From Clostridia bacterium (GTDB lineage: Bacteria; Bacillota; Clostridia; UMGS1883): a stretch of 64,000 nt of DNA. The notes under the pieces are model-generated. The model saw only the letters and a program-made list of their open reading frames with translations. It did no database searches and was not told the DNA's origin. The stretch spans positions 698 through 64,697 of the forward strand of contig JAZNYX010000025.1 of assembly GCA_045594665.1 (NCBI GenBank), read 5' to 3'. This document shows, one piece after another, positions 49,822-50,795 of this stretch; position 1 is the first letter of the stretch; each line of letters opens with the position of its first letter. Position numbers and translations under genes: made by a program.

Positions 49822-50013
49822 AGCTTTCCCCTGCCTTTCAAAAGCTTCTATGTATATTCTAAAAGTTCCTTCTTAATTTTTCCTTAAATTATTATACCAC
49901 AAAAATCAGAATATGAAATACTTTTTTTCTAACTTTACATTAGCATATACTTATTGTAGATTTATGTACCCTATGTTAATATTTTATGAACGCAAAATAA
50001 GGATATATTAAAT

Positions 50014-50042
50014 AGTAAAAAAACACTCGTAATCGAGTGTTT
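50014..50042 (-). terminator. minus-strand intrinsic terminator (probable 3' end of the toxin mRNA)
   Basis: minus strand: aaacactcga-tta-cgagtgttt followed by TTTTTTT. Confidence 0.6.
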
Positions 50043-50054
50043 CAAAAATCGGTA

Positions 50055-50083
50055 TTGACATTTGTAAAACAATTTGGTATAAT
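50055..50083 (+). promoter_or_regulatory. perfect consensus promoter TTGACA-17-TATAAT for a small plus-strand RNA
   Basis: -35 at 50055..50060, -10 at 50078..50083. Confidence 0.7.
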
Positions 50084-50089
50084 ACGTAT

Positions 50090-50203
50090 AGAAAAAGTGG
50101 AAACCCAAGACGGTTGCCACTACGATACACTGACAATATTGTGAGATTAAATCTCAAACTGTGAGCCTATCTGTTGCAGCAGACGGCTCACTTTTCCTTT
50201 TTA
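50090..50203 (+). ncRNA. candidate type I antitoxin sRNA (~110 nt), convergent with and overlapping the 3' end of the toxin ORF
   Basis: consensus promoter, no RBS-preceded ORF, terminator gtgagcc...ggctcac + CTTTTCCTTTTT at 50161..50202. Confidence 0.55.
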
Positions 50204-50283
50204 TTAGGATTAACATATATGTAGATTGTGAACAACATTCCAACAATACTGCATACACTCCCAATAACAGTCAAAGCGTGCAT
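50188..50283 (-). CDS. 31-aa hydrophobic peptide, candidate type I toxin (Hol-Tox/Fst-like architecture)
   Basis: AAAGGAGG RBS 8 nt upstream of the ATG; MHALTVIGSVCSIVGMLFTIYIYVNPNKKEK = one TM helix plus a Lys-rich tail. Confidence 0.6.
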   Translation of the reverse strand: MHALTVIGSVCSIVGMLFTIYIYVNPNKKEK

Positions 50284-50448
50284 GTATCAGCCTCCTTTCG
50301 GGACATATTTCCCGCATAAAAAGCTGTGCACTCACCTCACCTTTCCGCTTTTATGCGGCATGACAAGGCAACCGTCTTTGTTAACCGTCACACCGTTTAC
50401 AAGGAGGATTAAAAATCAACTGTATAACGGTGGATTTCCACAACGAGC

Positions 50449-50477
50449 ATTATACCATACTTGTCGAATATTGTCAA
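50449..50477 (-). promoter_or_regulatory. perfect consensus promoter TTGACA-17-TATAAT for the toxin mRNA (~160-nt 5' UTR)
   Basis: -35 at 50472..50477, -10 at 50449..50454 on the minus strand. Confidence 0.7.
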
Positions 50478-50480
50478 TTT

Positions 50481-50507
50481 AAAAGGCACCAACCGGTGTC
50501 TTTTTTT
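50481..50507. terminator. hairpin with flanking A-run and T-run (insulating terminator)
   Basis: aaaaggcacc-aa-ccggtgtcttttttt. Confidence 0.5.
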
Positions 50508-50536: not shown

Positions 50537-50565
50537 TTGTAAAAGGTGAATTGTGGTGATATAAT
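50537..50565 (+). promoter_or_regulatory. promoter TTGTAA-17-TATAAT with extended -10 (TGaTATAAT)
   Basis: -35 at 50537..50542, -10 at 50560..50565. Confidence 0.6.
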
Positions 50566-50571
50566 AATTAT

Positions 50572-50778
50572 GCTACACAAACTTAATATGGAATAGTAGG
50601 GATATACTTTCATTAGGAATACTATACCCTTTTTTGGGAATACAGTATAAATAGTAAATTTGTTAAAAACGCAAATTTCGGCTTATACTGTATTGAGGTT
50701 TATCCCCCAGTTAAGTTTGTGTAGCAACAATCGGAGTTTGCGTTTTTAGTGCGTCGGCTTCGGTTGGCGCACTTTTTT
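50572..50778 (+). ncRNA. unclassified ~205-nt structured RNA (6S-like rod or cis-regulatory leader) ending in a UUCG-capped terminator
   Basis: 15-bp closing stem 50572..50586/50711..50725; 12-bp stem 50639..50650/50683..50694; 7-bp apical stem; terminator 50749..50778. Confidence 0.5.
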
Positions 50779-50795
50779 AATTTAGGGGATTTTTT

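Follow-up and report, generated by a model that had tools for sequence, protein, structure and literature searches.

[quoted passage not shown] The array is made of two converging promoters, a 31-codon ORF, an antisense RNA gene and two terminators, and a preliminary description had assigned it to the type I systems in which the two transcripts overlap at their 3' ends. The observation itself is confirmed and the type I TA interpretation is supported by the comparative analysis presented here. We estimate at roughly 0.78 the probability that the locus is a type I TA module of the 3'-overlap class, either functional today or functional until recently. The coordinates of its features are collected in Table 1.

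Table 1. Features of the intergenic array in window coordinates (start sites, transcripts and RNA structures are predicted).
Feature	Position	Strand	Details
Toxin mRNA intrinsic terminator	50013..50043	minus	hairpin 50043..50020, 10-bp stem and T-run
Antitoxin sRNA promoter, TTGACA-17-TATAAT	50055..50083	plus	-35 50055..50060; -10 50078..50083; 12/12 match; extended -10 TG at 50075-50076; start site ~50090
Antitoxin sRNA, ~105-113 nt	50090..50202	plus	SL1 50097-50120; SL2 50143-50155; terminator SL3 50161-50191 (stem 50161-50167 / 50185-50191) and U-run (T-run 50192-50202)
3' arm of long-distance helices, GGCAACCGUCUUGGGUUUCCAC	50097..50118	minus	toxin 3' UTR; complement of sRNA SL1
Toxin ORF, 31 codons and TGA, MHALTVIGSVCSIVGMLFTIYIYVNPNKKEK	50188..50283	minus	start ATG 50283; stop TGA 50190..50188
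Shine-Dalgarno (SD), AAAGGAGG	50291..50298	minus	7 nt upstream of ATG 50283
Leader segment, AAGACGGUUGCC	50367..50378	minus	helix 2 5' arm, partner 50118..50107
Anti-SD-like leader stretch, AAUCCUCCUU	50401..50410	minus	sequence
Toxin mRNA 5' end, GUGGAAAUCCA (nt 1-11)	50431..50441	minus	helix 1 5' arm, partner 50107..50097
Toxin promoter, TTGACA-17-TATAAT	50449..50477	minus	-35 50477..50472; -10 50454..50449; 12/12 match; extended -10 TG at 50457-50456; start site ~50441/50442
Bidirectional terminator-like hairpin, GGCACC-AACC-GGTGTC	50481..50507	both	A/T runs either side; just upstream of toxin promoter

The two promoters had been reported as perfect, and both are. They converge at a distance of 366 bp. 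The 64-kb window contains six perfect TTGACA-N16-18-TATAAT sequences, where shuffled sequences predict 0.03, and two of these six are the pair that converges here. AT-rich intergenic DNA does give many weak promoter-like matches (15 observed at 9/12 or better against 10 expected), which could favor a chance constellation of promoter- and terminator-like motifs around a spurious ORF. Such an explanation is refuted by the comparative data and deserves practically no credence: 0.03 perfect promoters are expected per window, and the arrangement is conserved at more than 100 loci in different hosts. A layout repeated in dozens of independent genomes is far beyond chance. Toxin promoters of the relatives match the consensus at 11-12 of 12 positions in nearly all full-length modules, and their sRNA promoters at 10-12 of 12 in nearly all relatives, including those that have lost the toxin.

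From its promoter, the toxin gene would be transcribed into an mRNA of ~430 nt (~50441 to ~50013) with a 5' UTR of ~158 nt, close to the ~160 nt of the first estimate. The promoter and terminator coordinates of the plus strand predict an sRNA whose length brackets the ~110 nt initially proposed. A toxin-sense terminator had been placed beyond the sRNA promoter; it is found there, so that the toxin 3' UTR spans the entire sRNA gene. Transcription is convergent, the sRNA gene lies wholly inside the predicted toxin transcript and the two RNAs overlap at their 3' ends, consistent with the claim that the toxin 3' UTR is fully complementary to the sRNA. The complementarity of the sRNA extends without mismatch over the last toxin codons as well as the 3' UTR, and the toxin stop codon does lie, as reported, inside the sRNA terminator stem, in its 3' arm. 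Toxin-sense terminators occur at the equivalent place in loci L026, L029, L035-L037 and L043. The bidirectional hairpin probably insulates the toxin promoter against read-through, and counterpart hairpins precede the toxin promoter in G009, G022, G031 and G004. The module is single-copy, with no paralogues elsewhere in the 1.8-Mb MAG, and sits in a core-like intergenic site with no obvious mobile element around it, a setting that weighs against the TA reading.

The ribosome binding site and the ORF encoding one hydrophobic helix followed by a Lys-rich tail are present as claimed, the best 19-residue Kyte-Doolittle window of the peptide scoring 2.12. The family peptides show the same profile (best 19-residue hydropathy 1.4-2.7, tail net charge +2 to +4), and the ORFs measure 27-33 codons and are always open in the modules. 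One subfamily is devoid of the stop and reads through to 47-48 aa; the stop codon is otherwise fixed within the arm of the sRNA terminator, as part of the motif AAGTGAGCCGTCTG. Peptide sequences diverge strongly among subgroups; common to them are M/I-T-L/F at the N-terminus, (I/V)-C-(S/T/N)-I in the middle, a hydrophobic core, and an end rich in K/R. Throughout the family, the ORF is preceded by a strong, conserved SD whose spacing is fixed. In the window subgroup, substitutions at codon positions 1, 2 and 3 number 154, 44 and 173, and pN/pS among close relatives is 0.3-0.85. The codon-position pattern and pN/pS indicate that the ORF is a real coding sequence selected to remain hydrophobic.

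These signatures bear on a different view of the locus, in which the functional product is the sRNA, or a structured long RNA, acting in trans and the ORF is an untranslated relic. The nucleotide conservation of the UTRs and sRNA is much higher than that of the ORF, orphan sRNA genes persist without toxin, and ATT, ATA or ATC replaces ATG in many members, three observations that would fit an RNA product. Against them stand an ORF that remains open, at fixed length and frame, across very divergent peptide groups, the strong SD conserved at fixed spacing, and a depletion of substitutions at codon position 2 or an excess at position 3 with pN/pS of 0.3-0.5, ATT- and ATA-start groups included. A trans-acting RNA accompanied by a relic ORF is thus a very unlikely account of the family.

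The start codons deserve attention in their own right. The window toxin gene starts with ATG, and only 12 of 41 unique modules have ATG at the equivalent place, 7-10 nt downstream of GGAGG. ATT is found in at least 17 of them and the rest carry ATA, ATC or GTG; ATA and ATT predominate at the toxin start on IMG/VR contigs. Variants starting with ATG and with ATH share the same peptide subgroups, e.g. MTFS/ITFS and MTLQD/ITLQD/ISLQD. The ATT- and ATA-start ORFs are constrained (pooled pN/pS 0.40; 104, 105 and 190 substitutions at the three codon positions). Attenuation through weak start codons is known among type I toxins (PMC8167048). Literature searches returned no report of AUU, AUA or AUC starts in type I toxins. 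If near-cognate starts gate toxin synthesis, they would represent a new layer of control for these toxins.

The peptide had been likened to Fst, TxpA and Hol-Tox toxins. The likeness stands for the general type of peptide and fails at the level of sequence, since the window peptide and 28 relatives match none of the corresponding HMMs. Pfam and NCBIfam searches with the window peptide and ~28-29 relatives gave no toxin family, Fst/Ldr, TxpA and the other curated type I toxin families included, and returned only sub-threshold matches to unrelated transmembrane (TM) families. For Hol_Tox (PF16935, threshold 23.3 bits), the window peptide has no match at E<=10 and the ~28-29 family members none at E<=1. 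We take BsrE and BsrH to belong to this Hol_Tox family; a literature search on that link yielded nothing usable. A PDB profile search with the peptide retrieved chance TM matches only. Exact look-up of ten family peptides in a collection of 15 billion proteins found none of them on record, and among 1.84 billion cluster representatives a profile search picked out only ~25 clusters, several of which had been called from wrong upstream starts.

At the nucleotide level, the sRNA is better conserved than the ORF. It is predicted to fold into three hairpins (-35.2 kcal/mol, z -4.7 against shuffled sequences), and 45 unique sRNA genes were collected. RNAalifold detected covariation in SL2 and in the terminator hairpin, with 2-9 double changes per pair in the small hairpin. 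A covariance model of the sRNA, R1, scores 100.9 bits at the window locus. Among Rfam covariance models run over the region, none reached its gathering score; the sole match at E<=1 was STnc50 (E 0.72), located outside the module.

How widespread is the family? BLAST against relatives of the window genome identified homologues in two congeners, G004 and G009. A pattern built on the best conserved part of the 3' UTR matched 19 Clostridia genomes; the MAGs concerned are labelled Oscillospiraceae, Ruminococcus, Faecousia, Scatosoma, Ructibacterium and others, and were obtained from the gut of human, goat, sheep and cattle. With a two-part pattern, 37 metagenome contigs and 19 IMG/VR contigs were added. 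The sRNA-anchored searches combined amount to 76 loci; 61 are unique, and 41 of the unique ones are full-length modules. A pattern anchored on the toxin leader retrieved 96 further IMG/VR stretches, corresponding to ~44 genuine unique modules. In total, MAGs of gut Clostridia, metagenomes and IMG/VR contigs yielded more than 100 related modules. Three Arthrobacter/Paenarthrobacter matches and seven matches in GC-rich phages fell inside coding genes and were discarded as chance. The preliminary description had called for a search for relatives in other Clostridia and for co-occurrence of the antisense promoter: the latter accompanies the modules almost throughout, and the small ORF is open in all full-length modules, a separate set of toxin-less loci being discussed below. 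Model R1 matches 5 of 87 genomes of the window's order and 9 of 401 genomes sampled evenly over the class (about 2%), in 8 genera and 6 families. Such rates depict a sparse and patchy family, as expected of a mobile module. The family is also frequent on phage contigs; the L129 module, for example, lies on a siphovirus-like contig between the gene for the major tail protein and the Sie-like and tape-measure genes.

The predicted fold of the toxin mRNA (430 nt) is stable, at -140.3 kcal/mol (z -5.9 against shuffled sequences). Its most characteristic element is a long-distance helix in which the 5' end GUGGAAAUCCA pairs with UGGGUUUCCAC in the 3' UTR (helix 1) and the leader segment AAGACGGUUGCC with the adjoining GGCAACCGUCUU (helix 2). 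Helix 1 is present in the MFE and centroid folds and in the RNAalifold consensus. The latter, computed on 30 diverse modules (alignment A2), contains the terminator hairpin, SL2 and the bipartite 5'-3' helix, and 18 of its pairs show double changes. Pairing holds in 97.1% of the cells of the 22-bp bipartite helix, compared with 31-50% after sliding of the partners. Compensatory changes affect 3 of the 10 pairs of helix 1. Altogether, four pairs of the bipartite helix have changed on both sides in a compensatory way. At pair 1 G-C is replaced by A-U and at pair 7 A-U by G-C; the C-G of alignment column 11 becomes A-U or U-A, and a C-G of helix 2 becomes U-A (L026 and L045). Nine compensatory cells were counted in the helix, a number reached by none of 500 shuffles, which ignore phylogeny. 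The search patterns fixed part of the 3' arm and the filter demanded the leader motif, and therefore the conservation of helix 2 is partly by construction. Support independent of these patterns comes from the sister families B (G022/G031) and C (L075/L068), unrelated in sequence, which repeat the same 5'-3' relation: the first ~12 nt of their toxin mRNA are identical to the first nucleotides of the sRNA and hence complement the mRNA's own 3' region. In the window family, the leader segment of helix 2 reproduces the sequence of the SL1 loop and 3' arm of the sRNA.

A second predicted obstacle to translation is the pairing of the SD with an upstream GCUUUU/GUGCA segment. RNAalifold gave no stable consensus fold for the leader/SD region, and for that reason SD pairing was assessed by per-sequence pairing probabilities. 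The probability of being unpaired is 0.11 in the window; for the SD core it lies below 0.3 in 32 of 33 distinct relatives, with a median of 0.15 against 0.31 overall. Modelling of the sRNA-bound state leaves the predicted SD accessibility unchanged, and an SR4-like inhibition of translation through refolding is unsupported by this model. An anti-SD-like CTCCTT is encountered only in some relatives (L033, L041, L046, L125); the window stretch 50410..50401, which is not conserved across the family, was dropped as a defining part and its role is unsure.

Gene loss in the family is asymmetric. Within the sRNA-anchored set, at least nine independent loci have a deleted, truncated or insertion-split toxin next to an intact sRNA gene. 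The 5' part of the toxin gene is deleted or replaced in L040, L049, L054, L062, L073, L082 and L075, and in L066, L089 and L099 an inserted element interrupts the ORF. The toxin-less loci keep the terminator and an sRNA promoter matching the consensus at 11-12 of 12 positions. The reciprocal situation was sought among the ~44 unique IMG/VR hits anchored on the toxin leader: 42 contain the sRNA region, two are insertion-split, and an intact toxin without the sRNA region was encountered in none. In these sequences, toxin loss thus appears tolerated and antitoxin loss was unseen, which is the prediction for a TA pair, on modest numbers.

The main rival reading makes the product a small membrane protein that is not toxic and is controlled by a cis-antisense RNA, whether a regulator, an accessory subunit of a membrane complex or the product of a phage moron. 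It would explain why the peptides match no toxin HMM and why many relatives use very weak start codons; YhzE-2 and BsrE show, besides, that such peptides can be weakly toxic or non-toxic. It accounts poorly for three predicted layers of repression (paired SD, long-distance helix and an antisense RNA expressed from a perfect promoter), for recurrent toxin-less loci that retain the sRNA when no sRNA-less toxin was found, and for sister modules encoding Hol_Tox peptides. Layered repression, asymmetric loss and Hol_Tox sisters are together hallmarks of a product that needs to stay off. We regard a harmless membrane protein as improbable and retain a toxin as the preferred reading.

One sister module occurs in metagenome contigs L075 and L068, beside orphan sRNA genes of the window family; its peptide MVTYSDLFEFGLLIIAVISFCFNINKKN matches Hol_Tox with 29.2 bits for a threshold of 23.3, and its layout is that of the window family. 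In the congener G022, the corresponding chromosomal site lies in synteny; its flanks are 87-90% identical to the window, and both promoter/terminator blocks are 98-99% identical. The interior is an unrelated cassette consisting of a 21-aa MNYDFYYVIIVTLVLLIMATR ORF, a different sRNA and a bidirectional terminator, and the similarity between window and G022 stops within a few nucleotides of both start sites. Other genomes, too, have similar promoter spacers in different families. These sequence comparisons suggest either cassette exchange by recombination between promoters or the presence of operators in the spacers (TTCGACAA / TTGTCGAA).

Among characterized systems, bsrG/SR4 of the Bacillus subtilis SPbeta prophage is among the closest in design. 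In both, converging genes give an sRNA-toxin overlap of ~100-120 nt at the 3' ends, a single hydrophobic helix with a terminal KKK forms the toxin, the SD is part of a duplex (predicted here) and the 5' end of the mRNA is paired to its 3' part. In the bsrG mRNA, nt 1-35 pair with nt 232-262 to form helix P1, which is opened by SR4 binding at the 3' end, and the SD lies in a short double-stranded region (PMC3834814). The peptide and RNA sequences of the two systems bear no similarity, however, and BsrG counts 38 aa against 31 aa in the window. In contrast with bsrG, the 5' arm of the window helix is split by a ~55-nt hairpin, each half copying the first stem-loop of the sRNA; the toxin 3' UTR crosses the antitoxin promoter to reach its own terminator; and the SD refolding that accompanies sRNA binding is absent from the model. 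The bsrE/SR5 and bsrH/as-bsrH systems likewise associate short toxins (29-30 aa) with a 3'-overlapping antitoxin (PMC6562991). In B. subtilis, all type I antitoxins pair with the toxin mRNA at its 3' end, along 100-140 nt, and favor a decay that RNase III initiates (PMC6562991). In txpA/RatA (B. subtilis skin element; Enterococcus faecalis EF3263), an antisense RNA of ~110 nt covers the toxin 3' UTR in the same 3'-3' overlap, and the RNase III-dependent degradation is analogous to that proposed for the window, but TxpA (59 aa) is not homologous to the window peptide. The 3'-overlap layout of txpA/RatA and bsrG/SR4, initially put forward from the arrangement of the features, is now backed by the conserved architecture, the coding signature, the covariation, the bsrG-like helix and the asymmetric loss.

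Closure of the toxin mRNA by its own ends is known from hok/Sok and aapA1/IsoA1, whose full-length mRNA is kept inert by 5'-3' pairing (PMC8167048), and it resembles the helix predicted in the window. In these two systems it is the 5' or translation-initiation region that the antisense RNA binds, and the mRNA becomes active once its 3' end is trimmed, whereas the window antisense RNA is directed at the helix, namely at its 3' arm. The type I TAs of Clostridioides difficile (CD0956.2/RCd10 etc.) belong to the same class Clostridia, are often prophage-borne and encode one TM helix with a charged C-terminus. [quoted passage not shown] Type I TAs of B. subtilis and C. difficile reside in prophages, and one member of the window family was likewise found among phage tail genes. 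The locus departs from the par (fst/RNAII) layout, in which both genes share a bidirectional terminator and direct repeats make the 5' ends complementary: here the sRNA terminator hairpin is devoid of a U-run in the toxin sense. The repeat between leader and sRNA is inverted in the DNA, which implies that both RNAs share the sequence and do not engage in par-type pairing through it. Overall, the description that fits the module best is that of a new family, so far without annotation, in the bsrG/bsrE/txpA architectural class, present in gut Clostridia and their phages and distinct by sequence from Hol_Tox, Fst and TxpA.

Public RNA data are suggestive only, and concern relatives. No RNA run contained the window locus, a query with the sRNA likewise retrieved none, and no clear run was obtained for the rumen relative L041. 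The four runs examined out of ten listed contained contigs of relatives only (90-95% identity). Gut and bovine metatranscriptome contigs span the ORF and leader, with no strand information and possible DNA carry-over, and one contig of 328 nt ends a few nucleotides from the predicted toxin start site. Where short contigs cover the terminator/stop region, their depth is 48-128 against 3-9 for other pieces, contig depth being a poor measure of expression.

A working scheme can be proposed by analogy with bsrG/SR4, bsrE/SR5 and txpA/RatA; for the window locus, we only infer transcription, toxicity of the peptide and dependence on RNase III. The sigma-A-type consensus promoter would drive the ~430-nt minus-strand mRNA encoding the single-helix membrane peptide, and the converging consensus promoter the ~110-nt three-hairpin plus-strand sRNA (~50090 to ~50200). 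The free mRNA would be poorly translatable, its SD being paired and its 5' end and leader clamping its own 3' UTR in the 22-bp helix. The sRNA would bind the toxin 3' UTR and displace the leader, which may refold too, and the resulting long duplex would be cut by RNase III. Upon loss of the unstable sRNA, the peptide would be made and damage the membrane. By analogy with phage-borne relatives, the module could stabilise its locus or a prophage, or exclude phages.

A broader and tentative view, which we consider unlikely as a whole, makes of the family a modular, phage-spread TA system with cassettes swapped in a promoter-terminator platform, AUU/AUA/AUC-gated synthesis and a split leader copying antitoxin SL1. 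The terminator-promoter blocks on both sides would form a conserved expression platform for unrelated toxin/sRNA cassettes. With near-cognate starts in most members, whose ORFs remain under selection at the protein level, toxin synthesis would need relaxed start discrimination (e.g. low IF3, translation stress), a trigger besides sRNA loss. As the toxin leader is a split copy of antitoxin SL1, leader and antitoxin would compete for one site in the 3' UTR.

The near absence of the family peptides from protein databases illustrates how type I TAs are systematically missed by annotation. To our knowledge, such systems have been documented within Clostridia only for C. difficile. Scattered in gut Clostridia and frequent on phage contigs, the family is relevant to prophage maintenance, to phage-host conflict and to MAG annotation. 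Its compact RNA logic, which combines two consensus promoters, a 5'-3' clamp, a 3' antisense RNA and tunable near-cognate starts, could serve as a portable regulatory device.

In most family members the toxin ORF lacks an ATG start and has ATT, ATA or ATC in its place, with position and spacing from the SD sequence unchanged. Coding constraint still acts on these ORFs; in public data, gene callers have extended them to spurious upstream starts (protein clusters P0004, P0007, P0010 and P0011). The ORF itself is altered in two groups of loci. In L066, L089 and L099, which are IMG/VR and metagenome contigs, it is split after codon ~22 by an insertion longer than 1 kb, and beyond the insert lie the final 12 toxin codons and the sRNA gene, intact. 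In a subfamily comprising L026 (162-514), L103 and L116, the TGA stop is replaced by TTA and the ORF continues through the sRNA terminator stem, giving conserved peptides of 47-48 residues (...RKKVSHLLQQMANKLRNLSKR).

The sRNA gene can also stand next to a further module or sRNA gene. A sister module sharing the family layout precedes orphan family sRNA genes, i.e. those kept where the toxin is lost, in L075 and L068. It encodes the peptides MVTYSDLFEFGLLIIAVISFCFNINKKN and MVTYDGLFIFTTLIVGIIGLCYTIFSKKK, the former scoring above the Pfam Hol_Tox threshold. Contig 8 of genome G375 (L111) bears an intact module and, ~80 nt downstream of it, another sRNA gene that is an orphan, a tandem arrangement typical of type I toxin-antitoxin loci.

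Features of the family and of the neighboring RNA
Feature	Location	Strand	Remarks
Separate promoter and structured RNA	window 50537-50795	+	TTGTAA-17-TATAAT with TG
Terminator of the structured RNA	window 50748-50773	+	3' end of that RNA
ATT/ATA/ATC toxin starts, example loci	L030 7396-7738; L051 10617-10957; L125; L126; L058
Sister module, family layout	L075 5180-5720; L068 1-404		directly upstream of orphan family sRNA

At the chromosomal site corresponding to window 50000-50490, the congener G022 carries a different cassette (L020, 2010-2540). Both promoter/terminator blocks are 98-99% identical to those of the window while the flanking genes reach only 87-90%, and the similarity breaks at the two start sites. 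The enclosed cassette is unrelated to that of the window and consists of a 21-residue ORF (MNYDFYYVIIVTLVLLIMATR), another sRNA and a bidirectional terminator. The same cassette type is found at a different place in genome G031 (L021).

The spacer of the toxin promoter holds TTCGACAA or its reverse complement TTGTCGAA, adjoining the -35 box (e.g. window 50471-50455; L112, L114, L116). Together with TTGACA, either version forms a direct or inverted repeat that may be an operator.

Beside the module, upstream of SLOG-like and ychF genes, lies a highly structured RNA of ~200 nt with a 15-bp closing stem (gctacacaaacttaa / ttaagtttgtgtagc), driven by the separate promoter. It is syntenic in the congeners G009 and G022 and has no match in Rfam.

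The family is also phage-borne. On a siphovirus-like contig (L129, 108-9949), one member is a moron, flanked on one side by the gene for the major tail protein and on the other by the Sie-like and tape-measure genes.
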